From Candidatus Uhrbacteria bacterium RIFOXYC2_FULL_47_19 (GTDB taxonomy: Bacteria; Patescibacteriota; Patescibacteriia; SG8-24): DNA of 64,000 nucleotides. Below, piece by piece: positions 14,741-63,505 of this stretch. Numbering within the stretch: position 1 is the first letter of the stretch; each line of letters opens with the position of its first letter. The DNA lies in the NCBI GenBank assembly GCA_001791745.1, contig MGFG01000032.1, positions 3,775 to 67,774 on the forward strand, in the 5' to 3' direction. A program made the position numbers and the translations under genes. The notes below the pieces were generated by a model. It was not told the origin of the DNA, ran no database searches, and saw only the letters and a program-made list of their open reading frames with translations.

Positions 14741-15242
14741 AAAGAAATGGTGTCGTAAAATAGAAAAAGGGGGATTTAGGAGATTAGATAGGAGATTAGA
14801 GAAGGTGGAAAAAGTAGGTCAAGCAAGAAGAATTATTGTTATGGATCTCGGTCCATGATTTTTATTTTTGGTAGAGGATGATGATTAAGATAGGAATTTT
14901 TGCCCAAGAATCGAATCTGGGATTTAGTCAGATTATTATCAGCGATCTTCAAGGTCGTATTAGGGGCCTAAAATAGGGTCAAAATTTCAACTTTGAGCCA
15001 TTTTATGAGGCGTTTAAACGCGCTGTGTTATTTTGGAAGGTACTAGGGGGTTATGATTTTTAAAAAGGAGAATGGTGTTTTTGAAGAAGTTATTGTTAGG
15101 GCCTAAAAAACATTTCTGGTGTCGTTTAAGGTATATTGTGCGTCACAAGATATAAGTGATTAACCTCACTAAAAGTTAAAGAGTGATTTGTCTTCTATTC
15201 CCTACTTTTATTTCCAACTTTACTTTGTACTTTGTTAATTAT

Positions 15243-15275
15243 TAAAAAAGGTCCGGAAGCTCGGACCTTAGTTTC
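15243..15275 (-). terminator. Rho-independent terminator of the 82-aa ORF.
   Basis: GGTCCG-gaagct-CGGACC, followed on the minus strand by a T-run. Confidence 0.6.
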
Positions 15276-15300
15276 GTCACTTAATTCTTCTTTACTTTGT

Positions 15301-15549
15301 TCAATTAGCGACCGAGACTGACGTGAATCCATCAACGTGCCTAATCTGAGTGATTGTTTCATCGTCGATCGGACCTTCTAGCAAGAAGATGCTAGGATGG
15401 TCCTCTCTTAAGTAGAAAACATCTCTTCGATCACCTAGCAGCTCTTCTAATTGTTTTGCTACGTGTTTCTTGGTTGTACCTTGACTGGCTATTATTTTGA
15501 TAACCATACCCTCTCCATCTCCATTCTTGTTTGGGGCCAACATTAACAA
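15301..15549 (-). CDS. Small hypothetical protein (82 aa, or 68 aa from the internal Met).
   Basis: An isolated ORF with its own flanking terminators. No family recognised. Confidence 0.4.
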   Translation of the reverse strand: MLMLAPNKNGDGEGMVIKIIASQGTTKKHVAKQLEELLGDRRDVFYLREDHPSIFLLEGPIDDETITQIRHVDGFTSVSVAN

Positions 15550-15594
15550 AGATATGTTATTGAGGCAAGGATTAGTTGTTTTTGGATTTAGTAA

Positions 15595-15628
15595 ATAAAA
15601 ACCCGACTAATGAAGTCGGGTTTTTATG
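15595..15628 (-). terminator. Rho-independent terminator of the DsbA-like gene.
   Basis: ACCCGAC-taatgaa-GTCGGGT, flanked by A- and T-runs. Confidence 0.6.
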
Positions 15629-15639
15629 CCTAGGGGTTA

Positions 15640-16383
15640 TTAGAGGACCGCTTCAAGCATAGCTTTCAATTGGTCGTAAGGAATAGCTCCAGGTACAAGA
15701 GTTGGTTGTCCATCAGAGCCAACAATGATAGTACCAGGGGTTCCTTGAACCCCTGCTGTCATTCCACCTGATAGGTCAGCACTGATTTTACTGTCGTACT
15801 TCGAGGAAGTAATACAATCGTCAAATTTACTTAGATTGAGTTTCAAGTTTTTCGCTAGAGTCTCATATCTGTCTGAACCTAAGATGGTTTGATCTTCAAA
15901 GAGGCCATCAGCAAACTCCCAAAATTTACCTTGCTCAGCTGCACACTCAGCAGCATTGGCTGCAGTTCGGGCATTAGGATGAAAGGATAATGGGAAATGA
16001 CGGAAGACTACTTGGATTCGTCCCTCATATTCGTCCATCAACTGTTTAAAAGATGTGTGAAATCGTCCACAATATGGACACTCGAAGTCGGAGTAAAGAT
16101 AGACTGTGGCTTCAGCATCGTCTGGGCCGACGATATGATCAGTGTCGTCGATGGGTTTGATTTCTCCAACCTCGTCGGATAAACCATCATCGACCGGTGA
16201 AGGGTAGGTGTCATCGTAAGCCAGATTTTGATCTGAATTAGATAGATCCGAGCTAGCTTGGTTATTAAACACGTAACTTAGCAAGATAAAAAAACCAATA
16301 GTACACAGTACTAGCACTCCGCCTATTAAACCAAGGGCGAAACTGGTTTTTGGTGAGATGACTACATTACCGTCATGACTCAT
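15640..16383 (-). CDS. DsbA-family thiol:disulfide oxidoreductase with an N-terminal TM anchor.
   Basis: Thioredoxin-fold CxxC active site FECPYCGRFH, and an N-terminal hydrophobic helix. Confidence 0.75.
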   Translation of the reverse strand: MSHDGNVVISPKTSFALGLIGGVLVLCTIGFFILLSYVFNNQASSDLSNSDQNLAYDDTYPSPVDDGLSDEVGEIKPIDDTDHIVGPDDAEATVYLYSDFECPYCGRFHTSFKQLMDEYEGRIQVVFRHFPLSFHPNARTAANAAECAAEQGKFWEFADGLFEDQTILGSDRYETLAKNLKLNLSKFDDCITSSKYDSKISADLSGGMTAGVQGTPGTIIVGSDGQPTLVPGAIPYDQLKAMLEAVL

Positions 16384-16587: not shown

Positions 16588-17595
16588 CTAATTATCACCT
16601 CCAATAAAACGGAAAAATATTCTTTCATCATAGCGTAAATCGACATATTCTAGTTCACCTCGTCTTTCTCCTATCTTTTCCCTTAAAACCAATGATAATC
16701 TTGTGGCTTGTGTCTCAAAAGGAATGAGTGTGGTTAGGTAGACGTGCCAACCTTCCTTAAGCATTACATCGACAGTGTCAGCTGCTGGGTCAAGCACGAA
16801 CCACCTTACTCCTGTACCAGACACATCTGATAGTTGATTATAGGCTTGTAAAACAAGTTTTAACATTTCATTTGCAACTGCCGTTCCACTTGGTTCATAG
16901 TCACCCCCAACCTTATCCCAGTCTAGTATTAGTGGTATTGGATTGCTATTTTTTCGATCTTTATCAGGATCGGTGATTGTATTTGGATCTATGTCCCCCA
17001 CTCCGACCGATTCTGCTCCGAGTTCACCTGCTGCCACACCTTCGAATCCTTCCGGTAAATCGATTAGGGCAATTCTTTCTCTTTTTGTTAGCTCTCTAAT
17101 TACATAACCTTCCTCATCAATAGCCAAAAATTGACCTTTAGCCAAAAAAGCTCCAACTGACGTTTTTTCTTCTGCCTTAACTAAGATTGTACCAGGAAGT
17201 TTTTTTCTAATTTCTAAGGAATTAAGATAAAACTTTTGAGTAATATCTGATTCTGCTGTTTTAGTATCAAAGATAAAAATTGAAGCTTGTGGTAAAAAAA
17301 TCAAACGTCTTTTTTGTAGACGACTCTCCATTAATTCCCTAATTATGGTTGAAGTATCAGCTGATACACCTTCGATTGTTATGTTTGAAATACGAAAAGA
17401 CTGACTCCAAAATAAGTACCAACCTACAAATAGTAATAGAGCAAAACTTATCGTTATTAAAACGATAATCTTAAGAAGGCGTGGATCACGTGTCTTTCGT
17501 TTATTGTTTTGTCCACCAAAAAGCGGATTACCGTAATTGCGTCGACTGTAGTCGCGAGTGCTCCGTAACGATTTTTTGCTATGATAATCCTTCAT
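16588..17595 (-). CDS. ftsQ: Cell division protein FtsQ/DivIB-like (POTRA domain).
   Basis: A basic cytoplasmic tail, a single TM, and a POTRA-like segment (ISNITIEGVS...TSTIIREL). It sits immediately downstream of the ddl remnant, as in dcw clusters. Confidence 0.65.
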   Translation of the reverse strand: MKDYHSKKSLRSTRDYSRRNYGNPLFGGQNNKRKTRDPRLLKIIVLITISFALLLFVGWYLFWSQSFRISNITIEGVSADTSTIIRELMESRLQKRRLIFLPQASIFIFDTKTAESDITQKFYLNSLEIRKKLPGTILVKAEEKTSVGAFLAKGQFLAIDEEGYVIRELTKRERIALIDLPEGFEGVAAGELGAESVGVGDIDPNTITDPDKDRKNSNPIPLILDWDKVGGDYEPSGTAVANEMLKLVLQAYNQLSDVSGTGVRWFVLDPAADTVDVMLKEGWHVYLTTLIPFETQATRLSLVLREKIGERRGELEYVDLRYDERIFFRFIGGDN

Positions 17596-17607: not shown

Positions 17608-17886
17608 TCAATTAAGTTCTCTCTTAAGGTTGGATGTAGTATAAGAACGTTCTTCCGCTGTCCTGATTAGTCGATCAAGTAAGGTCTGATAATGAATACC
17701 ACTAGCTGCTAATAGTTTTGGAAACATGCTGAATTGAGTAAATCCAGGCATTGTATTGATTTCATTGAGGTAAAGTTCATCAGACTTTGGATTGAGTGTC
17801 TTGGCAATTGAAATAGCAGAACGTACAGATACTTCATGTTCACTGGATTTTCCTCCGTACAGCAGTAGCAGTGATTTCTTCGGCAT
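17608..17886 (-). pseudogene. ddl: D-alanine--D-alanine ligase remnant. An in-frame internal deletion has left 92 aa.
   Basis: Residues 5-27 ([26 protein letters not shown]) match the Ddl N-terminus. Residues 39-75 ([39 protein letters not shown]) match the extreme Ddl C-terminus. The central ATP-grasp region, about 220 aa, is absent. Confidence 0.7.
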
Positions 17887-17895
17887 AGAAGTCGA

Positions 17896-19035
17896 TTAGC
17901 GTACAACAATGCGCGGCAGCATAGGGTTAATTCTAGTTACTGCTTCGTAGTTTACTGTACCTATACGTTCGGCGAATTCTTCTGCTGAAATTTCTTCTCT
18001 CCCTTGTCGACCAATGATCACTACTTCATCCTCCTCGTAGACACGATGTATGTCGGTCACGTCAACAATTGTCATATTCATACAAACTCTTCCTAGAACT
18101 TTGGCTCTAGATCCATTTATTAAAACATTACCAACCGATGATTGGCCACGATCAAAACCATCCCAATAACCGACAGGGATGATTGCGACAATCGAGTCAC
18201 GTCTAACTTTTTCTGTTAAGCCGTAGCTCACTGGGGTTCCGGATCGGATTTTTTTTACTTGAGCCACTATGGTTTTCCAAGTTAATGCCGGTTTGAGTTG
18301 GATATTGATTCCCCGGTCTACTGCTGCACCCTTCGTGATCTTGGATGACCAAAGGCCGTAAAGTGAGATTCCAGTTCTAATTAGATCAAATTGGGTTTCC
18401 GGATAAATTATAGCTGCTGCGCTGCAGGCAGTATGGAGGAAGGGAGGTTTTTTACCTAGTCTTTCAACAATTTTGACTGCTTCTTTAAAGCGTTTGAGTT
18501 GAAGGAAGGCATAGGCTGGGTCGGCTGTGTCTTCAATATTGGCAAAATGGGTCGATAAACCCTCAACTATTAAATTAGGGCGTCGATAAATGTAGCGCAA
18601 AAATGTTGGCAGTTCCTTAGTTTCTATTCCTTGTCGTGAGGTACCGGTTTCTAGTTTTATGTGCACCTTAGCTGGTCGACTTTTAGTAGCGTGTCGACTT
18701 AGTAGGTCGATTGTTGGACGACTGTAGACTACTTGACTGAACCCTTGCTTAACTACAGATTTCAATAATTGATACGGAACATAGCCCAGGATCAGAGTTG
18801 GTTTTTTTGACTTCGCCTCTCTAACTATTTCTGCTTCCTCTAAAGAATCCACACCAAACCAGTCTGCTTGTCGATTAACAGCTTTTACTGTCTGGCGGAT
18901 TCCGTGACCGTAGGCGTTTGACTTGACTACAGCCATGAACGCTGAATCTCCCGCCAGGCGTTTTAACTCATTAGCGTTTGAGACCAGAGCTGAGGATGAA
19001 ACATCCACCCAGCTTTTTGCTGTTCCATTTTTCAT
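17896..19035 (-). CDS. alr: Alanine racemase.
   Basis: PLP-lysine motif AVVKSNAYGHG and a C-terminal beta domain. Confidence 0.85.
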   Translation of the reverse strand: MKNGTAKSWVDVSSSALVSNANELKRLAGDSAFMAVVKSNAYGHGIRQTVKAVNRQADWFGVDSLEEAEIVREAKSKKPTLILGYVPYQLLKSVVKQGFSQVVYSRPTIDLLSRHATKSRPAKVHIKLETGTSRQGIETKELPTFLRYIYRRPNLIVEGLSTHFANIEDTADPAYAFLQLKRFKEAVKIVERLGKKPPFLHTACSAAAIIYPETQFDLIRTGISLYGLWSSKITKGAAVDRGINIQLKPALTWKTIVAQVKKIRSGTPVSYGLTEKVRRDSIVAIIPVGYWDGFDRGQSSVGNVLINGSRAKVLGRVCMNMTIVDVTDIHRVYEEDEVVIIGRQGREEISAEEFAERIGTVNYEAVTRINPMLPRIVVR

Positions 19036-19039
19036 GGGT

Positions 19040-20353
19040 TTATTGGCCGATACTTTCTTGACCTCCCATAAGTGGAATTAGGATCTTTGGAATTGCTATC
19101 TTTCCGTTGGATTGCTGATTATTCTCCATTATTGCTACCAATATTCGACCCATAGCTAAGGCTGTAGCATCATTCATGTGTACGTATTGAACACTACCGT
19201 CATTTCTTTTTACTCGCGTAGATAATCGTCTAGCTTGGTAATCAGTCATAAGGTCGGCTGAGTGTGTCTCACGATACTTTTCCTGTCCCGGCATCCAGCA
19301 CTCCATGTCTATTTGTCGTGCATCAGGTTTACCCATGTCTCCAGTACAGACATTCATAACTCGATATGGAATCTCTAGGTCACGTAGGAAGTATTCTTGA
19401 ATGGCTACCAATAAATCCTGTTCTTTTCGTGATTGCTCTGGTAGACAGAAAGTTTCCATTTCAATTTTATCGAACTGGTGCTGACGGATGATACCGCGAG
19501 TATCCTTGCCATAGGAACCGGCTTCTCGTCGGAAGGCTGCAGTGTAGGCCACATAACGAAGAGGTAGATCAGCTTCTTTGAGCAGCTGATCCATGTGTAG
19601 TGGCCCCAGAGTATGTTCAGCACTGCCGATTAAGTAAAGATCATCAGATTCAATGTGATAGCGTTCGTCACGTGGTTCTAGACGATCCATACGTCCAAAA
19701 GCCTCAGGGCGGATCATGAGTGGTGGTACAACCGGTATAAATGGCGTATCTGGTAAATCAAGACCTGTCTCAGTAATAATTCGACCGATCTCCTTTCGGC
19801 TAGTGAGGAGGTTCAGTGCATACTGCAATAGAGCAAACTGCATTCTGGCCAAGTCACCCATAATGTAGGCAAAGCGACTACCAGTGACTTCAGCTGCCCG
19901 TTGGGAATTTAGTAGTCCTAAAGTTTCGCCAAGTTCAGTATGATCCTTGATTTCGAAGTCGAATTTTTTTGGTTCACCCCAAGATCGCAATATTTCATTG
20001 CCGGATTCGTCCGCACCAACTGGTACATCTTCCAGTGGAACATTAGGTAAATCTAGAAGTAGTGCGTTAAATTCTTGCTGGATAGGCTCCAATAATTCTT
20101 CGGCTTCTTTCAGTCCATCTTTAAGCTCACGCATCCTTTCGATTGCCGCTTGCTTTATCTTTGGATCAGACTCTTTGGCAATATCTTCGCTAGTACGGTT
20201 TTGCTCACTCCTTCGGCCCTCAATATCTGTTATTAGTTGCCGTCTTTTTTCGTCAAGAGTAAGCAGCTGGTCGAGGTCGACCTTAACATTCTTATTTTTG
20301 ATGGCCGCCCGAATTTTTGGCTGATTTTCTCTAATGTAGTTTATGTCTAACAT
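19040..20353 (-). CDS. serS: Seryl-tRNA synthetase.
   Basis: An N-terminal coiled-coil arm and class II motifs (FRREAGSYGKDTRGIIRQHQF, GSAEHTLG). Confidence 0.9.
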   Translation of the reverse strand: MLDINYIRENQPKIRAAIKNKNVKVDLDQLLTLDEKRRQLITDIEGRRSEQNRTSEDIAKESDPKIKQAAIERMRELKDGLKEAEELLEPIQQEFNALLLDLPNVPLEDVPVGADESGNEILRSWGEPKKFDFEIKDHTELGETLGLLNSQRAAEVTGSRFAYIMGDLARMQFALLQYALNLLTSRKEIGRIITETGLDLPDTPFIPVVPPLMIRPEAFGRMDRLEPRDERYHIESDDLYLIGSAEHTLGPLHMDQLLKEADLPLRYVAYTAAFRREAGSYGKDTRGIIRQHQFDKIEMETFCLPEQSRKEQDLLVAIQEYFLRDLEIPYRVMNVCTGDMGKPDARQIDMECWMPGQEKYRETHSADLMTDYQARRLSTRVKRNDGSVQYVHMNDATALAMGRILVAIMENNQQSNGKIAIPKILIPLMGGQESIGQ

Positions 20354-20510: not shown

Positions 20511-20620
20511 CGGATTTTTGGCAGTCCAAAGTCACCCCCGATTAGACTGAGGATGACGACGAGTTAAAGGTATTATTACTTTGATTATTCATGTTTTTAA
20601 TCTACCTTCGATGACTTAGA

Positions 20621-21079
20621 CTAGTCAAGTAATCGTCGTCTAAGAATCGAACTAGAGAGTTCTTTACCATTACGCCTTGGTAGTTTGATGATTTTAGGTG
20701 TTTGAGGCAATGCGCTTATCTGTTGTTGTATCTCTGGCCGATCGGTGGATTGATCAAAACCTAGGCAGATGATGTTTGGTTGGTAACGGGTAATAATGGA
20801 CCATTCTCCTGGTGCATCTCCAGGTACAGCTTCATCAACCGATTTGAGAGCGCGAATTAGTTCTAGTCTTTCCTCTAGCGAGAGTACCGGTCGTCGGCCC
20901 TTCGAGTTTTCGGCTCGGTCATCGCGGCAGACAACCACGACTAGGTGGTCACCATATCTCCTAGCCTGTTCGAGAAAGAAGATGTGACCGGGATGTAGTA
21001 AATCAAAAACACCGAACACCAAAACAGTTTTTAGCCGTTCGACATTCGATGTTTTTGGATGAAGGTTTACTGGGGTCAT
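20621..21079 (-). CDS. Cytidylyltransferase-like (HxGH) nucleotidyltransferase, TagD/RibL-like.
   Basis: Motif VFGVFDLLHPGHIFFLEQAR. Size 152 aa. Confidence 0.6.
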   Translation of the reverse strand: MTPVNLHPKTSNVERLKTVLVFGVFDLLHPGHIFFLEQARRYGDHLVVVVCRDDRAENSKGRRPVLSLEERLELIRALKSVDEAVPGDAPGEWSIITRYQPNIICLGFDQSTDRPEIQQQISALPQTPKIIKLPRRNGKELSSSILRRRLLD

Positions 21080-23187: not shown

Positions 23188-25155
23188 TTATTCTTGTCTT
23201 CCAGCAAAAAAGCTCTCAAGAATCTTGCGGGCTACAGGTACTGCTGTACGTGATCCTTCTCCACCTTCTTCGATCATAACAGTGACTACAACCTCTGGTT
23301 GATCATAGGGTGCGAAGGCAGTAAACCAAGCATGATTATCGTGTTGACTACTCCATTGGGCGGTTCCTGTTTTTCCTGCAGCTGACACAGGTAGAAGCGA
23401 AAGTCCGCGGGAACTACCATAAAGAACAGAGTCACGCATTCCCTGACGTACTGCTGCGATGTGCTCTGATGGGACAACTTGACGAGCAATAGGTTCAGGT
23501 GTGAGATTTTGGCGTTGACCATCTCCAGAAATTAGAGCGCGGACAACATGAGGATGTACTAGGTCACCACCATTAGCAAACGTTGCAGTCATAACTGCTA
23601 CTTGCAGTGGTGTAACTAGTAAGTCACCCTGTCCGATTGAAAGATGATAGGTGTCACCAATGAACCATTGTTCGCCTTTCGTCTCTAACTTCCACTCTTC
23701 TGAAGGAAGAAAGCCAGCTCCCTCACTCGGAAGATCGATACCGGTCTTAGATCCAAACCCAAAAAGTCTTGCATATTTTGTTATGCGTTCTGGACCCAGT
23801 CCTTCACCTCCTTCGTATCCACCGCCAATGATGTAGAAGTAAGTATTGACTGACTCAGAGAGTGCTTTGGCTAAGTTGGTTGATCCGTGTCCACCAGCTT
23901 TCCAGTCAGGAAAGAACCATTGTCCGACATAAAAGCCACCAACTGAAAGGAAAGTTGTTTGAGGTGTAACGATCTTTTCGGTTAATGCTGCCGCTGCTAG
24001 TACTGGTTTGAAGACCGAGCCGGAAGGTAGAGAAGCTCCGATTGCTCGCGAGAAAAGTGGTGCGTCTATGTCTTCTGACAATACTGCGTAATCCTCACTC
24101 GAAATTCCACTAGCAAATTGATTATTATCATAAGCTGGCCAGCTCACAAGTGCTAACATCTCACCATTATGTGGGCGCATGATGACAACACTTCCTCGAT
24201 TTAAGCCAGCCGTCTCTAACTCCTGTTGTAATGCATTCTGCGCTGCTTGTTGTAGTTCGGTATCGATAGTTAGGATTAAATTTTGTCCAGCAGAACCTGG
24301 CTCTTCGGCAATCGTCGTTTTACGATGACCTAGTGCGTCGACCTCGACCCGTCTTCGACCGTACTTACCTCGTAACTCAGTCTCGTAACTACGTTCTAAT
24401 CCAGTCCGTCCTATCCGATCAGTGGGGAGAAAGTCACCCGATTCAACATCTTCAGCTGTGACTCCACTCTCGAAACCAATAATGTGCGACATTGATGAGA
24501 TTTCTGTTGCTTGTGGATATTCACGCTTGGTTCCACGTAACAATTGTACCCCCATCCAGCGCGAGGACATGATTTCAACTAGAATGGCTTGTTCATGGTT
24601 GATATCTTCAGCTATTGGTACAGCAACCGAATCTAAACTATTAGCATAAATCAGTTTTTCCTCGATATCGCGTGGTGTCAATTCAACTATTTCAGCAAGT
24701 CGTCCGAGCACCAAACGTCTATCTGCTTCGTTCGTTGGGAGGTCAGAGGGAATTACCGTTGCTGTAAATTTGGGCATGTTCTGAACTAAAATTAAGTCAT
24801 TACGGTCAAAAACAACCCCTCTTTCAGCTGGTATTCGTTCAATACGACTACGGTTTCCTTCAGCTAACGCAGCAAATTGCGCTCGTTTTATGATTTGTAT
24901 TTGTCCACATCTGATCAATACTACAATTAGACCGACCAACAGAATCAACCAAATTGGTAGTAATTTGTCCGTCCCTACTGAAGTACCAATACGTCTATTC
25001 TTCTCATTTTCTGGAGCACTTCGTCCTCCCCAGTCAGCCAAAGTATCGTCAACAAAAATTAATCCTTCATCAGTAATCACTGATCCGATTTTTTCATTAA
25101 GACTTATCGGAAATGCAGAGATGTCATCCGGAATACTGTTTTCATCTAACTTCAT
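23188..25155 (-). CDS. mrdA: Penicillin-binding protein 2 (class B transpeptidase).
   Basis: SxxK (SGSVFK), SxN (SESVN) and KTG (KTGTA) motifs. An N-terminal TM. Located downstream of mreBCD. Confidence 0.85.
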   Translation of the reverse strand: MKLDENSIPDDISAFPISLNEKIGSVITDEGLIFVDDTLADWGGRSAPENEKNRRIGTSVGTDKLLPIWLILLVGLIVVLIRCGQIQIIKRAQFAALAEGNRSRIERIPAERGVVFDRNDLILVQNMPKFTATVIPSDLPTNEADRRLVLGRLAEIVELTPRDIEEKLIYANSLDSVAVPIAEDINHEQAILVEIMSSRWMGVQLLRGTKREYPQATEISSMSHIIGFESGVTAEDVESGDFLPTDRIGRTGLERSYETELRGKYGRRRVEVDALGHRKTTIAEEPGSAGQNLILTIDTELQQAAQNALQQELETAGLNRGSVVIMRPHNGEMLALVSWPAYDNNQFASGISSEDYAVLSEDIDAPLFSRAIGASLPSGSVFKPVLAAAALTEKIVTPQTTFLSVGGFYVGQWFFPDWKAGGHGSTNLAKALSESVNTYFYIIGGGYEGGEGLGPERITKYARLFGFGSKTGIDLPSEGAGFLPSEEWKLETKGEQWFIGDTYHLSIGQGDLLVTPLQVAVMTATFANGGDLVHPHVVRALISGDGQRQNLTPEPIARQVVPSEHIAAVRQGMRDSVLYGSSRGLSLLPVSAAGKTGTAQWSSQHDNHAWFTAFAPYDQPEVVVTVMIEEGGEGSRTAVPVARKILESFFAGRQE

Positions 25156-25694
25156 AGTCTGTCGAATTCAGAGGTGATCAGAACTAGTTTTCTGAGTTTG
25201 CTACCAGTTTTGGTTACCAACCATCTCATCATTAACACCACTCCGCATTGAATTGGTAAGGCCAGAGCGACATAACCTGCAGCTAGGACTGAAGCTGGAT
25301 GCAGGAATGGACCGCCAGAAATTGCTCTGGCTATTGCTTCGATTATAAATGTCATTGTATAAAAAAGAAGAAAAGACACTGCGTTTGTACCGACACTAGA
25401 AACGGCAGTCCGATGACTGACAAATCTTGTAACTAGGAACGACACAATTATCACAGTAAACAATAAGGCAAATGTATAGGTTCCTATCTGGCGAGAAATT
25501 AAAGAATCACCAACTAACCCAGCTACGATAGCTAAAAAAAAGGCCAATCGAAAACGGAAGGATAAGGTCAGACCAATGATTATTATTAATACTGGGTTTA
25601 TGATGGCTAATGACGTTGGTAATGAAGATAAGGTAGTCGCTTGGAACAGTGCCAGAACAAAAATTAAGACCGTAAACAACAGAGATTTTTTCAT
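25152..25694 (-). CDS. mreD: Rod shape-determining protein MreD.
   Basis: A 180-aa polytopic membrane protein overlapping the mreC stop, in the mreBCD-mrdA context. Confidence 0.6.
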   Translation of the reverse strand: MKKSLLFTVLIFVLALFQATTLSSLPTSLAIINPVLIIIIGLTLSFRFRLAFFLAIVAGLVGDSLISRQIGTYTFALLFTVIIVSFLVTRFVSHRTAVSSVGTNAVSFLLFYTMTFIIEAIARAISGGPFLHPASVLAAGYVALALPIQCGVVLMMRWLVTKTGSKLRKLVLITSEFDRL

Positions 25695-40138: not shown

Positions 40139-41044
40139 TCAGATTCTGAATAGATTTTGTGTATTTTTAAGTGTTTGACTATAAACCTCATCCAGATCTA
40201 GGTTCTTGATTTCAGCGATCTTGTTTGCTACGAGACGCACAAAAGCTGGTTCGTTTTTTTCTCCACGATGAGGTACTGGAGTCAAATATGGTGCATCGGT
40301 TTCTATAATTAGCCGTTCGATAGGTATGGCTCGCACTACATCATGAAGCGTTTCTTCGGTGTTTGGTGAAACCTTGCGTGGTTTGTAGGTTACATTGCCA
40401 GTAAATGATAGATACAAACCGAGATCCAGATACGACTCTGCTTCAGCGATCGTACCAGAAAAACAGTGTACATCGCCGCGCGGCAATCTTCCTGCCACTC
40501 GATGGTCGTTCAGGATTCTTAGAACCTCTCCGTGTACATCAGTCGAACCGTCGGCTGCATTTCGAGTATGGATCATTAGTGCTAGTCCACGCTCAAAAGC
40601 TAAGTCAATCTGAAGACGAAAAAGCTCTTCTTGTTTGGCACGAAAAATTAATGGATCAACATTGACTGGGACATGGTAGTAGTCCAAACCACACTCCCCT
40701 ATTCCAACTGTTTTGGAACTTTGATCGATCAATGAATTATAATAATTCGGATCAAAAATTTCAGCTCGACTGCGGAAGTGAACTAACTCGCCACCTTCTT
40801 CCTCGCTTTCATCGACCTCTTGTTCAAATAAATGAAGCGGGTGTAGCCCAACTACAGCCCAAACATTGTCGTATCGTTCAGCACATTCAACCGCTCGTTG
40901 GCTAGTCGAAGACTGCGAACCAACAACAACTAAACCGATACGATCATTAGCTGCTCGTTGAATAACATCTTCGAGATCATTGCGGTAGGCACTGAAGTTA
41001 GTGTGACAGTGTGCATCAATGAGTTGTAATTCAGTAGTGTTCAT
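40139..41044 (-). CDS. TatD-family metal-dependent hydrolase (paralog 2).
   Basis: N-terminal HxH (IDAHCH) and TatD-family His/Asp signature positions. Confidence 0.8.
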   Translation of the reverse strand: MNTTELQLIDAHCHTNFSAYRNDLEDVIQRAANDRIGLVVVGSQSSTSQRAVECAERYDNVWAVVGLHPLHLFEQEVDESEEEGGELVHFRSRAEIFDPNYYNSLIDQSSKTVGIGECGLDYYHVPVNVDPLIFRAKQEELFRLQIDLAFERGLALMIHTRNAADGSTDVHGEVLRILNDHRVAGRLPRGDVHCFSGTIAEAESYLDLGLYLSFTGNVTYKPRKVSPNTEETLHDVVRAIPIERLIIETDAPYLTPVPHRGEKNEPAFVRLVANKIAEIKNLDLDEVYSQTLKNTQNLFRI

Positions 41045-41140
41045 GGTTTTGATATTAAATCAGGTAGGAGTACATAATTTACAATAAAAAATCCGGCTAA
41101 AGCAACCAGATGATGGACCGTTCTGAATGAATGATCGAAC

Positions 41141-41983
41141 TTAGGAACCGATGCGTCTAAAAATCTTATGAGCATTGGCTGATAGTTGCTTCTCTACTTC
41201 GATAACCGACAAATGGCGTAAGCTCGCAATATTATCGGCTACTTGACGTACATAAGCCGGCTCACTTCTTCTTTGACTCCAAGGAGTCGTGGTTTGAAAA
41301 GGACAGTCACTTTCTGCAAGTAAATTGGATAACGGTGCTTTTTTGAGTAGTTCACTCTGATAACCACCATGCGCAATGATGCCAGTGACTGAAATCATGA
41401 AGCCGAGACTGAAATACTTGCGAGCTTGTTTCCAAGTACCAGAGAAACAATGCACTACACCACGCGAGTCAAACCCTGTTGTACTTTGATCCCAGTTCGT
41501 GAGCAATTTTAGCATTTCATCGTGTGCATCGCGACAATGTAATAGTACCGGCAATCGAAGCTCACGTGATAATTGAAGAAATAAACCGAAGGTGCGAATT
41601 TGATTACGTCGAATGCGCTCAGCTAATTCAATCTCTGGTCCGCCACGCCGTCCGGTTGGTAAATCATGATAATCTAAACCGGTTTCACCGATGGCTACCA
41701 CCTTAGATCGACTGGCTAAATGACGATAGGCTCCAAAGTCGATCAGTTTATCATCTGCAATTAGGTCACCAGTTACTTTTGATGGATGTAGTCCAACTGC
41801 GGCATAGACTCCTTCGTGTTTTTCGGCGATACCTACCGCTAGCGTCGAGGTGACGTAGTCGCAACCCAAAGTCACAACTCCGACATTTTCGTGTCTAGCA
41901 TGTTCGACCACAACTTCAAGATCCCGATCAAAAATCGGGTCATCCAGATGAGCATGGGTATCGATCAAACGATATGATTTCAT
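41141..41983 (-). CDS. TatD-family metal-dependent hydrolase (paralog 1).
   Basis: N-terminal HxH (IDTHAHLD) and conserved His/Asp positions. Confidence 0.8.
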   Translation of the reverse strand: MKSYRLIDTHAHLDDPIFDRDLEVVVEHARHENVGVVTLGCDYVTSTLAVGIAEKHEGVYAAVGLHPSKVTGDLIADDKLIDFGAYRHLASRSKVVAIGETGLDYHDLPTGRRGGPEIELAERIRRNQIRTFGLFLQLSRELRLPVLLHCRDAHDEMLKLLTNWDQSTTGFDSRGVVHCFSGTWKQARKYFSLGFMISVTGIIAHGGYQSELLKKAPLSNLLAESDCPFQTTTPWSQRRSEPAYVRQVADNIASLRHLSVIEVEKQLSANAHKIFRRIGS

Positions 41984-60233: not shown

Positions 60234-60437
60234 TCAAGAACACTCACTTAATTGACTCGCAAGGCAGGGCACTAGATTTTTCAACAACACAATGCGTTCG
60301 TCCGTATCGTTAATGAACGTCAACTTGTCATCAAGTAAGTAAAAGAACAGTCTAGCTGAGGTTAATAATGTAAAGATACCAATAATCAACCCGAGAACAA
60401 CGACCGGAATCAGGAGCAGGAGTCTTGCCTTACTCAT
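60234..60437 (-). CDS. Small single-TM protein (67 aa), translationally coupled (ATGA overlap) to the 3' end of the hydrogenase large-subunit gene.
   Basis: A 4-nt start/stop overlap with the large-subunit gene, and a hydrophobic helix LLLLIPVVVLGLIIGIFTLL. Confidence 0.35.
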   Translation of the reverse strand: MSKARLLLLIPVVVLGLIIGIFTLLTSARLFFYLLDDKLTFINDTDERIVLLKNLVPCLASQLSECS

Positions 60438-61729
60438 ACCAAATCCCAGTTAACTTTTAGGAAGTGCGTGGCGCAACTCATACAAGGGTCGTAGGCTCGG
60501 ATGAGTTTCTCGATCTCATGCTCAATGGTCGACCTATCCGTGTCAGGCAGCAGTCCATCGACCAATCCGGCGATGTCACGCTCGATGTTAATTTGATTTT
60601 GCCCAGTAGGAACGATGACCTCGCCACGTCGAACCAAACCATCTTCTCCGACTACAATCTTGTGATAGAGCGTCCCGCGTGGCGCCTCGACTACGCCAAT
60701 TCCCTCTCCTTCACAAATCTCCGGCTTGATAGGCGTCTCGATCACAAATTCACGCCCCTGCAATAGTTCGATCGCATGATCAATGCTATGCAAAAGTTCG
60801 ATCGCCTGTGCCAAGTTATTGCGGTAGATGTTGGTAGAAGGAAAAAGCTTAAGTGTCTTGCTAAGTGACTTCCTAGTCTGCGGGTGTAACGTCTCTTTAG
60901 CTAGATTTAATCGAGCCAGCGAACCAACCATAAATGGTCTCCCTTCGTGTGTATAGGCCGAAGCGGTCGAGTACGGTAACACTACGTGTTCCAGTAGATC
61001 CGGATAACGCTTCTCGTTATACCGTTCGCCCTGACTCGTAACCACCTCACCGTCTAGGAACCAATAATTTCCCTCCGGTACCAACGCCTGATAGTCCATG
61101 TCGCGATCGAAACTCCAGTCGCAACGTTCAAAGGTCGCGATGCAACGCAAAGCCGCCGGACGTGCTGCCTCCAATTTGCGCACTGCTTCCTCGATCTCCT
61201 CTTTGGATGGCAAATGATTGAATCCACCGAGAGTGGGAAAAGTCGCATGAACCGACCGACCGGCCACGATCTGAGCCAGGTAATTACCTGCTGCCTTAAT
61301 TTCAAAACAATCGTGCAAATGCTGATGCTGTTCTTCATCATTCTCATCGAAAGAGAGAAAATTGTCTTTGTTGTATAGATCCGGCATGACAAAAATGTAC
61401 AGATGTAGAGCGTGATCGCGAATGTTCAATCCGTACATGGTTAGATGGCGAAGATCCATGGTCTGAAGCGACGGCTGCAAGCCAATTGCATTCTCACAAG
61501 CTTCAATAGCACACATGATATGAGCATTCGAACAAGTACCACAGATTCTCGATAGTAACGGCGGAATAGCCACGAGTGGTTTACCCTCAACCGCTTTAGA
61601 AAAGAAACGTTTATACTCCTGAATCTGATAGTGAACATGCTCTACCTTACCATCGCGAATACGTAAGTCGAGTTTGGCGTGACCTTCAACCTTACTAATG
61701 GCGTCGAGCGAGATGTCTTGAGAATGCAT
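60434..61729 (-). CDS. [NiFe]-hydrogenase large subunit (group 3-type, cytoplasmic).
   Basis: N-terminal RICGTCSNAH (RxCGxCxxxH) and C-terminal DPCMSCATH (DPCxxCxxH), followed by a 9-aa extension (FLKVNWDLV) typical of the protease-cleaved tail. Confidence 0.85.
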   Translation of the reverse strand: MHSQDISLDAISKVEGHAKLDLRIRDGKVEHVHYQIQEYKRFFSKAVEGKPLVAIPPLLSRICGTCSNAHIMCAIEACENAIGLQPSLQTMDLRHLTMYGLNIRDHALHLYIFVMPDLYNKDNFLSFDENDEEQHQHLHDCFEIKAAGNYLAQIVAGRSVHATFPTLGGFNHLPSKEEIEEAVRKLEAARPAALRCIATFERCDWSFDRDMDYQALVPEGNYWFLDGEVVTSQGERYNEKRYPDLLEHVVLPYSTASAYTHEGRPFMVGSLARLNLAKETLHPQTRKSLSKTLKLFPSTNIYRNNLAQAIELLHSIDHAIELLQGREFVIETPIKPEICEGEGIGVVEAPRGTLYHKIVVGEDGLVRRGEVIVPTGQNQINIERDIAGLVDGLLPDTDRSTIEHEIEKLIRAYDPCMSCATHFLKVNWDLV

Positions 61730-61741
61730 AGGCTTCAGGTA

Positions 61742-62251
61742 TTACTTTTCTGAGGACCAACTGGCCTTAATCTGAGCCACAGCCGAGTCAACCGTATCGA
61801 GAAAACGCTGTGGATCCATTGGACAACCTGGTACTTCGGCGTCAACCTTAATCACATCACTCAACTTGAGTACCTGATCCAAGTGACCGAAGCGTTCGAC
61901 TAGAAACTCAACATCCTGCTTCTGTTCGTCACTAAACAAATTACGTTGAGCTGATGGCATGCCAGTTACAGCACAAGAACCGATTGCAACTACCAAAGTC
62001 GCTAACTTTCTAATTTCGCGAATCTTCTCAGCTTGTGGTTCACCAGCTACAGCTCCTTCAATGAAGGCGATGTCCATTTGATCAAGAACATTGTTGGTTT
62101 GTAGTACACGAGCATGCCGGAAATCAAATAACTCACGCCACTCCTGCCAACGCTCATTTAGGAGCTCCGTCATGACAATGGTGTTATCCTCGCAACAAGC
62201 GAAACTAAACCAGCCAATACGCACTTTCCTGGGCTTGTCTTGTTCATTCAT
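61742..62251 (-). CDS. [NiFe]-hydrogenase small subunit, short HoxY-like form with the proximal cluster only.
   Basis: Cys ligands at FACCED, IGSCAVTG and VPGCPM. Size 169 aa. Confidence 0.8.
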   Translation of the reverse strand: MNEQDKPRKVRIGWFSFACCEDNTIVMTELLNERWQEWRELFDFRHARVLQTNNVLDQMDIAFIEGAVAGEPQAEKIREIRKLATLVVAIGSCAVTGMPSAQRNLFSDEQKQDVEFLVERFGHLDQVLKLSDVIKVDAEVPGCPMDPQRFLDTVDSAVAQIKASWSSEK

Positions 62252-62260
62252 AAAAATCGT

Positions 62261-63505
62261 TTAGTCTTTCGGTAAAAGTGCCATCAAATCTGATTCCGGA
62301 TCTGATAATAACTCTAGTTGATTAGAGATATTAACAGCACTCTCAATAGCCGACTTAATCGGAGCTAAATCCTCGCCACGATTAATCAGGAAAGCGCCAG
62401 CAATTCGTTGATTATTTCGAACAACTAGACAACCGTACGAGTTAGACTCCACTCGGCCACGAGGAAAAAGTTGACTATCTTTGCATCTAACCTGGCCAAC
62501 AAAAACTAAACTCAAACCAAAGCCATGAGAAGTGTATGACGACACGATCCGATAAGGCAGACGCTTGCCAAGCATATTAAGTGCAGCAGTCCGCCCTTGC
62601 TCTTGAGCATCCAACCAAGTTCCGCAAATATACGGCTCACCAATAGCTGGATCGTTTAGCTCGGCAACATCACCCGCTGCCCAAATTCCATCTAGGTTAG
62701 TTTTTAAATACTCATTGGTTCTGATACCACGACCAACCGTAATTCCAGCTTGCTCCAGCCAACCACCATCAAACTGCACACCGATACCAATTACTAGCAA
62801 ATCACAATCGATACTGGTTCCATCCTTCAATTTAACACCTTCAACTTTATCCTGACCCAAAACCTCAGCAATTTCAGAATTTAGACGAACCGTAACTCCA
62901 CCACCAATTAATGCTCGCTCGATGATCTGGCCGGCATCTTGATCCAGAACTGGTTCCCAAAAGTAAGATTCACGCACTACTACGTCAACTCCCAAGCCAG
63001 CTAATCGTAATAAGTTACACATCTCAAAACTGACGAAACCAGCACCGATGACTACCGCCCTTTTGGCGTGCTTAATTTCCGTCATGACCGCCTGTGCATC
63101 ATTTACTGTCTTCATATAGCTGACGCCGGTCTTTTCTGCCAGTCCTGGCACATTTAATTGTCTAACCGGACAACCAGTGGCCAAAAGTAATTGACCAAAA
63201 CCAAGTTCAATACCATCATCAAGTGTCACCTTATTATCTTTAGTAGAAAGCTGTTCAGCACGATGCCCAGATAAAAAATCAATTCCCCGTTCAGCATAGT
63301 GTTCCGGCTGTCTCATCCAGATTGTCTCGAACGGTATTTTACCTAAAAAAAGATTTGGTTTAGATAATAAAATACGCGAATAGAGCGGATACGGCTCATC
63401 CGAAACAATAGCCACCCGTGCGGAAGGTTTCTCTTTCTTTAACGTTTCAGCGGCGGTCGTCCCTGCGATACCGCCGCCAATAATCAGATAATCGTACTTT
63501 TCCAT
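62261..63505 (-). CDS. FAD-dependent pyridine nucleotide-disulfide-oxidoreductase-family flavoprotein (ferredoxin/rubredoxin-NAD(P) reductase-like). No redox-active CxxxxC.
   Basis: Two Rossmann dinucleotide motifs (YLIIGGGIAGTTAA and AVVIGAGFVSFE) and the GD motif (AAGDVAE). Confidence 0.75.
   Translation of the reverse strand: MEKYDYLIIGGGIAGTTAAETLKKEKPSARVAIVSDEPYPLYSRILLSKPNLFLGKIPFETIWMRQPEHYAERGIDFLSGHRAEQLSTKDNKVTLDDGIELGFGQLLLATGCPVRQLNVPGLAEKTGVSYMKTVNDAQAVMTEIKHAKRAVVIGAGFVSFEMCNLLRLAGLGVDVVVRESYFWEPVLDQDAGQIIERALIGGGVTVRLNSEIAEVLGQDKVEGVKLKDGTSIDCDLLVIGIGVQFDGGWLEQAGITVGRGIRTNEYLKTNLDGIWAAGDVAELNDPAIGEPYICGTWLDAQEQGRTAALNMLGKRLPYRIVSSYTSHGFGLSLVFVGQVRCKDSQLFPRGRVESNSYGCLVVRNNQRIAGAFLINRGEDLAPIKSAIESAVNISNQLELLSDPESDLMALLPKD

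Follow-up and report, generated by a model that had tools for sequence, protein, structure and literature searches.

What is left of the D-alanine--D-alanine ligase gene (ddl) when only 92 codons stand at its site in an otherwise ordinary operon, and can such a short product still have a use in the cell? The question is raised by a groundwater member of the candidate phyla radiation, Candidatus Uhrbacteria bacterium RIFOXYC2_FULL_47_19, of which a stretch of 64,000 nt from contig MGFG01000032.1 was analysed (hereafter the window). Between the genes for alanine racemase (alr) and an FtsQ/DivIB-like protein, the window carries an in-frame ORF of 92 aa with an ATG start (17608..17886, minus strand), identified from the ORF list and by Pfam, NCBIfam and alignment. 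Its product is identical to NCBI OGM00366.1 and HCC22398.1, both annotated as hypothetical protein. In the present study, we consider it about 80% probable that this ORF is a real but non-functional remnant of a native DdlA-type D-alanine--D-alanine ligase gene, left behind by a recent single deletion.

Anatomy of the ORF and of its operon

The first-pass annotation had proposed that the ORF at the ddl site keeps both ends of Ddl in frame, and this was upheld by the Pfam N and C domains, which both score above their thresholds, and by the alignments. Dala_Dala_lig_N was matched at E 8e-9 and 36.5 bits (cut-off 34.6), with ORF residues 6-45 on profile positions 2-41 of 121, and Dala_Dala_lig_C at E 6.8e-15 and 55.5 bits (cut-off 24), with ORF residues 33-74 on profile positions 162-203 of 204. 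The ORF is thus related to Ddl, its ends match the two domains, each of which is incomplete, and the middle is absent. All matches among the NCBIfam models were to Ddl/Van ligases, each in two stretches; the best of them, NF002528, reached 96.4 bits against a whole-protein cut-off of 262, and TIGR01205 reached 78.2 bits against a cut-off of 245.65. Full-length Ddls were likewise matched in two stretches, in the correct order and with both ends significant. In alignments with ten full-length syntenic Ddls, and then with five of the closest syntenic ones, ORF residues 1-32 corresponded to Ddl residues 1-32 and ORF residues from about 36 to 92 to Ddl residues from about 303 to 361. Compared with orthologues of 360-366 aa, the ORF lacks about 269 aa (about 807 nt) and stays in frame. 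The loss of the ATP-grasp core had therefore been recognised correctly, and its size, put earlier at roughly 220 aa, has to be raised to about 269 aa on the alignment with the syntenic Ddls.

By Pfam and the alignments, the N-terminal remnant (residues 1-32; 17791..17886, minus strand) comprises the first strand and helix of the Ddl N-domain with the GGxSxEHEVS motif. It is followed by the deletion junction, residues 33-36 (PKSD; 17779..17790, minus strand), which the alignments assign to neither side and at which the 807 nt or so of ancestral ddl are gone. The C-terminal remnant (residues 37-92 and the stop; 17608..17778, minus strand), delimited by Pfam and tblastn, holds a conserved stretch of 15 residues and the terminal helices, and by tblastn it is 61-63% identical to residues 307-360 of the syntenic Ddls. 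In this part the NEINT, PGFT and SM motifs are kept (LNEINTxPGFTxxSM), and the conserved ARVDF segment, which holds the R and D of the RxD motif preceding the E/N metal ligands, is deleted. The central ATP-grasp domain is wholly absent from the ORF: Ddl columns from about 33 to 302 are without a counterpart, and so is every nearly invariant central-domain column of alignment A1.

The ORF resembles a DdlA-type Ddl (PF01820 and PF07478; NF002528 and TIGR01205) in that both ends are homologous, with 52-57% identity to syntenic Ddls in the retained columns, in that it stands in the same alr-ddl-ftsQ slot, and in that the GGxSxEHEVS and LNEINTxPGFT motifs are kept. It is unlike one in lacking about 269 of about 361 residues and in scoring below every curated cut-off, and is a relic of this type rather than a working member of it. 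We judge from these comparisons that the ORF is derived from ddl and occupies the ddl slot of serS-alr-ddl-ftsQ.

The neighbouring genes had also been described as intact. This was borne out for alr (17896..19035, minus strand; TIGR00492, 305 bits), which lies immediately upstream of the remnant, and for PBP2 (mrdA), MreC and MreB. The FtsQ/DivIB-like gene directly downstream (16588..17595, minus strand) gave sub-threshold matches to POTRA_1 and FtsQ_DivIB_C and holds a position conserved in all relatives, and mreD can be named by position only. At that position, between mreC and mrdA, stands a 180-aa ORF (25152-25694, minus strand) with no Pfam match at E<=1e-4. The remnant starts 9 nt past the alr stop and ends 12 nt ahead of the FtsQ-like ATG. 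Near it were found serS, lysS, greA, PBP2 (mrdA), mreC and mreB, with serS (19040..20353, minus strand; Pfam) as the first gene of a likely serS-alr-(ddl)-ftsQ transcription unit. In a scan for promoter-like sites, the nearest minus-strand sites to the operon lay upstream of serS, as hexamer pairs that are consensus matches only (20572..20628, minus strand), and inside the 92-aa ORF no promoter-like or terminator-like site and no Rfam match or RNA element was found. Most simply, the remnant would be a co-transcribed passenger in the serS-alr-ftsQ operon; its transcription probably continues, and it may be translated as well.

The deletion in the population and among relatives

An assembly collapse, which the first-pass annotation had raised as a caveat, is very unlikely. 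It would mean that a full-length ddl is present at the site and that its middle was collapsed or skipped by the assemblers. The repetition of one systematic error is conceivable, most of the contigs having been obtained at a single study site from a single, nearly clonal population. Against this, the exact 92-aa protein, with the same junction, recurs on at least 24 contigs, which represent about ten samples and no fewer than four assembly pipelines; they include Logan contigs (SRA runs), ENA megahit k141 contigs, the original ANAN16 scaffolds, three JGI metagenomes and the independent assembly GCA_003518215.1. In ten fetched loci, nucleotide identity to the window was 99.7-100% over stretches of up to 12.3 kb. 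No direct repeat above 16 nt in length was found in or around the ORF, and the sequences of the two ddl ends are unrelated, so that an assembler would have had nothing to collapse. In addition, the deletion is exactly in frame, with normal gene junctions on either side. At the deletion junction itself no repeat or microhomology was found, the ancestral sequence being too diverged for a nucleotide-exact breakpoint. An artefact being hardly credible on this evidence, we regard the deletion as real in the DNA of the sampled population, in which a minor full-length ddl allele may exist alongside the deleted form.

All sampled copies of the remnant belong to one nearly clonal population. A 98%-identical locus from a second sample of the same study (L011, ERZ28563820) has 36 differences from the window and none of them in the remnant; 35 are substitutions crowded into 120 nt of alr (L011:1174-1292, window approx. 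18030-18148), of which 8 are protein-changing, and the other is a single isolated difference. Such a patch suggests either recombination with a diverged strain or a chimeric assembly. In a further assembly (L003:3781-4463, ERZ28563792), the dsbA-like gene (window approx. 15640-16383) is broken into two called ORFs of 94 and 132 aa, and about 98 nt of the window are replaced there by 37 nt, which may be a scaffold gap or an indel variant. The stretch of about 900 nt between the M23 peptidase and DsbA-like genes (window 14741-15639) contains only ORFs of 55-82 aa without Pfam matches, and those of 80 and 55 aa are called by the gene caller in every assembly that has the stretch.

For comparison, relatives were taken from the contigs with the closest Alr homologues and from an Alr-based synteny census of GTDB species representatives, among the matches listed. 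The order mrdA-greA-lysS-(CTP transferase)-serS-alr-ddl-ftsQ-...-dsbA is conserved, and a full-length ddl (324-388 aa) lies between alr and ftsQ in at least 13 syntenic relatives (L017, L018, L020-L023, L025, L027, L037, L047 and L102-L104). The two closest of those that keep ddl, L017 and L018, have gene spacers of 9-10 nt, as the remnant has. The two nearest relatives of all are without ddl at the site: Uhrbacteria CG_4_10_14_0_8_um_filter_58_22 (L012-L014), with Alr 81% and the FtsQ-like protein 78% identical, and GCA_043825985.1 (L015/L016), with 64% and 67%, respectively. Their alr-ftsQ spacers measure 74 nt in L012 and 84 nt in L015. Traces of ddl seemed visible by eye in these spacers as a basic Ddl tail, and were rejected, since the local scores were no better than those of shuffles: the nucleotide scores were reached by 74/500 (L012) and 287/500 (L015) shuffles, and the BLOSUM62 protein scores by 178/300 (L012) and 80/300 (L015).

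In a neighbour-joining tree of SerS, Alr and FtsQ (984 columns), the topology was ((L015,(L012,window)),(L017,L018)), and all ddl-bearing loci fell outside the first clade. Taken with the presence of ddl in the syntenic relatives, the tree indicates that alr-ddl-ftsQ was the ancestral arrangement and that ddl was erased within one small clade. As the two closest relatives also lack ddl at the site, its loss at this locus is read as a recurrent trait of the clade and not as a one-off.

More widely, in at least eleven more distant Patescibacteria (L030, L031, L032, L062, L064, L070, L071, L077, L081, L083 and L092) an FtsQ-like gene comes directly after alr and no ddl lies within 4 kb, and in at least five others (L028, L045, L048, L049 and L053) alr is followed by a short ddl of 315-327 aa (384 aa for the L045 ORF) that is of the DdlB and not the DdlA type. 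The ligase at the alr-ftsQ locus appears to be evolutionarily labile across Patescibacteria. In the sister Uhrbacterium, a Transposase_mut (IS256-like) gene is found just downstream of dsbA, about 2 kb from the ddl-less site (L012:9169-9867, L014:9169-10113).

The timing of the loss was approached through the divergence of the neighbouring genes. Between the window and L012, synonymous sites are saturated (the distance correction fails) and dN is 0.08-0.14 for serS, alr and ftsQ; dS was inestimable for 8 of 9 pairs because of saturation and was used solely as a sign of deep divergence with low dN. For alr, dN against the sister lineage was 0.11, with dS saturated. These neighbours, alr, serS and ftsQ, are judged to be under strong purifying selection, and, given the synonymous saturation, any sequence drifting neutrally since the L012 split would by now be unrecognisable.

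The remnant is far from that state. Of the columns without variation in ten intact Ddls it keeps 23 of 25, and of those conserved in eight or more of these Ddls it keeps 36 of 40. Its identity to L017 and L018 in the retained columns is 52-57%; between intact Ddls that are at least comparably diverged, the same columns give 46-63%. At columns conserved to at least 90% it deviates at 3 of 28 (G15S, W59L and L76T), compared with a mean of 0.9 and a range of 0-5 for 27 intact Ddls, and at columns conserved to at least 70% it deviates at 9 of 46, compared with a mean of 3.6 and a maximum of 9. Its deviations lie at the upper edge of the intact range and indicate at most slight relaxation. The ends have thus been under Ddl-type constraint for nearly all of the time since the L012 split. 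From the saturated dS and the near-intact ends together, we infer that the deletion in the window is recent relative to that split and that the losses in L012 and L015 were separate events, which would make at least two, probably three, independent erasures.

On the preferred reading, selection on the ddl copy would already have been relaxed in the ancestor of the clade, as this number of erasures in one clade suggests. A single deletion of about 807 bp would then have taken codons from about 33 to 305, and with them the bulk of the N-domain, all of the central ATP-grasp domain and the C-domain up to about its middle, and would have happened to keep the frame, the start, the stop and the tight junctions of 9 nt and 12 nt. 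An in-frame deletion that spares both junctions would minimise polar effects on ftsQ, and this may explain why it was tolerated.

Function of the remnant and comparison with known relics

ATP-dependent ligation of two D-alanines by the remnant is implausible, since the ATP-binding domain is missing, and the best reading of its sequence would be a non-functional remnant unable to ligate D-alanine. In an AlphaFold2 model built on a 28-sequence alignment, the mean pLDDT was 62, the pTM was 0.39 and no strands were predicted. The regions of the motifs, residues 11-18 and 37-49, had a pLDDT below 50, and only the C-terminal helices were confident (77-88).

A protein that has lost ligation could still be maintained for another function, and the first-pass annotation had set this possibility beside that of a very recent event. 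The mini-ORF might encode a small protein with a new role, such as binding Alr, MurF or the division machinery, or it might be a translated spacer that couples ribosomes from alr to ftsQ, in which case only in-frame deletions preserving both gene junctions would be tolerated. Such maintenance would agree with the open frame, the canonical start and stop and the preserved ancestral junctions of 9 nt and 12 nt, with the almost undecayed state of the conserved ends, and with the C-terminal helices modelled at pLDDT 77-88. However, the model shows no compact fold, the residues that were kept are the catalytic motifs of the ligase, which have no evident use without the ATP-binding domain, and the two closest relatives do without any ddl sequence, their ftsQ lying behind a plain spacer of 74-84 nt.

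The homologue searches bear on the same point. In a HMMER search of 1.84 billion cluster representatives, only the query itself was recovered at E<=1e-30, and the 90% cluster of the 92-aa protein has one member. A word-index search for the 92-aa architecture in 5.8 billion clusters returned C-terminal fragments only, so that in neither collection was another protein of the same architecture found. The other HMMER matches to both ends were full-length Ddls or unrelated ORFs of 197-297 aa with different internal deletions. A conserved 'mini-Ddl' family is accordingly not seen in these collections, and we judge that it does not exist. Overall, conservation, model and homologue search favour the very recent event, and retained function of the mini-protein is the less favoured of the two, being in our opinion quite improbable.

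Among the internally deleted ORFs, eight from public metagenomes are like the remnant in keeping both Ddl ends in frame with part of the middle gone: P0293 (197 aa), P0393 (238), P0357 (246), P0421 (257), P0349 (261), P0341 (263), P0398 (265) and P0336 (297). Two of them, P0293 and P0357, resume just before the xNEINT motif, as the remnant does. Unlike it, the eight are unrelated one-offs with other breakpoints and smaller deletions, and none has the 92-aa architecture. In-frame internal deletions of ddl may recur, or these ORFs may be artefacts of assembly or gene calling.

Pseudogene relics are familiar from reduced genomes such as those of Mycobacterium leprae and insect endosymbionts. The remnant is like these in that a housekeeping gene has been eroded by deletion with its operon neighbours intact and with relatives standing at successive stages of erasure; it is unlike them in that its frame is still open and that the lost gene is normally held indispensable wherever peptidoglycan is made. 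The object is an ordinary ddl pseudogene relic, an example of a well-known kind of gene decay. It has been deposited in databases as a hypothetical or ATP-grasp-domain protein and should be annotated as a ddl pseudogene. Furthermore, metabolic reconstructions should not count it as a Ddl, because both Pfam domains pass their gathering thresholds and an automated pipeline could wrongly score the pathway as complete.

Source of D-Ala-D-Ala and other features of the window

The wider point is that one clade of Uhrbacteria has repeatedly erased ddl from a conserved operon while keeping alr. Set against the retention of ddl in at least 13 relatives, this repeated erasure suggests that the copy at the locus had become dispensable. 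All three ddl-losing lineages retain an intact, constrained alr, and PBP2, MreB and MreC are encoded as well; presumably, then, D-alanine continues to be ligated. The likeliest cause of the relaxed selection would be a supply of D-Ala-D-Ala from another ligase elsewhere in the genome, and we consider such a second ligase probable.

Candidates for its nature are offered by known systems. In many Chlamydiae, Ddl is fused to MurC (PMC5814848), so that the ligase function resides in a different gene, and a replacement of this kind would make the ddl copy dispensable. The DdlB-type ddl that follows alr in L028, L045, L048, L049 and L053 represents a ligase from a different branch of the family, and its occurrence in these other Patescibacteria makes a swap of ligase type plausible. 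In the 84 kb formed by the window and 10 kb on each side, neither a MurC-Ddl fusion nor a DdlB-type gene was found, and the presence of either in the genome of the window is conjecture. By tblastn, a second ddl of the DdlA or DdlB type was sought in the same 84 kb, and only the remnant was recovered; the window contains no mur genes. When the closest full-length Ddl was used as query against 5.8 billion proteins, none of the best 120 matches was named for the organism of the window or its sister. A relocated native copy, which should stand in that set at about 60-66% identity, is thereby made less likely; a ligase that is divergent or was acquired horizontally would be missed by such a set of 120. 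About 10 kb beyond the window start, a second PBP_dimer and Transpeptidase gene (591 aa, FtsI-like) runs off the locus (L100:1-292, minus strand). It may open a dcw/mur cluster, an obvious place for murF and another ddl.

Bacteria of the candidate phyla radiation often live as episymbionts and have reduced biosynthetic capacities. It could accordingly be that the loss of ddl is genuine and genome-wide, so that the population of the window, CG_4_10_14_0_8_um_filter_58_22 and GCA_043825985.1 encode no ligase anywhere and yet keep alr, PBP2 and MreB/MreC under selection, the remnant being the last visible step. The cells would then import D-Ala-D-Ala or muropeptides from a host, a partner or the community, or a non-Ddl enzyme would form the dipeptide. 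This view agrees that the 92-aa ORF is a relic and differs only on the cause of the relaxed selection. It draws on the independent erasure of the same locus in three related lineages, on the single ddl trace in the 84 kb and on the best 120 Ddl homologues, none of which is a relocated native copy from this organism or its sister. On the other side, an intact and strongly constrained alr in all three lineages would be hard to understand without ligation of D-alanine, genes for PBP2, MreB and MreC are present, and about 7% of a genome of about 1 Mb (an assumed size) was inspected, with a divergent ddl not expected to rank within the best 120. In addition, a review reports Ddl, together with MurD and MurF, in all organisms thought to have peptidoglycan (PMC5814848). 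On balance, we think a clade without any ligase rather unlikely and prefer a second ligase as the source of D-Ala-D-Ala. Our literature search on a missing Ddl in Uhrbacteria, Patescibacteria and the candidate phyla radiation returned no relevant paper. If there is indeed no other ligase in these genomes, they would belong to peptidoglycan-making bacteria that depend on external or unconventional D-Ala-D-Ala, a concrete and testable case of the metabolic dependence that has been put forward for the candidate phyla radiation.

Two further features were observed in the window. At 60434-63505 (minus strand), genes for a NiFe-hydrogenase large subunit-like protein (431 aa) and a small subunit-like protein (Oxidored_q6, 169 aa) adjoin a Pyr_redox_2 oxidoreductase gene, and ferredoxin-like genes lie just past the window (L101); together with the hydrogenase genes, these look like a cytoplasmic hydrogenase module. 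At 40139-41983 (minus strand), two tandem paralogues of TatD-family DNase are encoded, of 301 and 280 aa.
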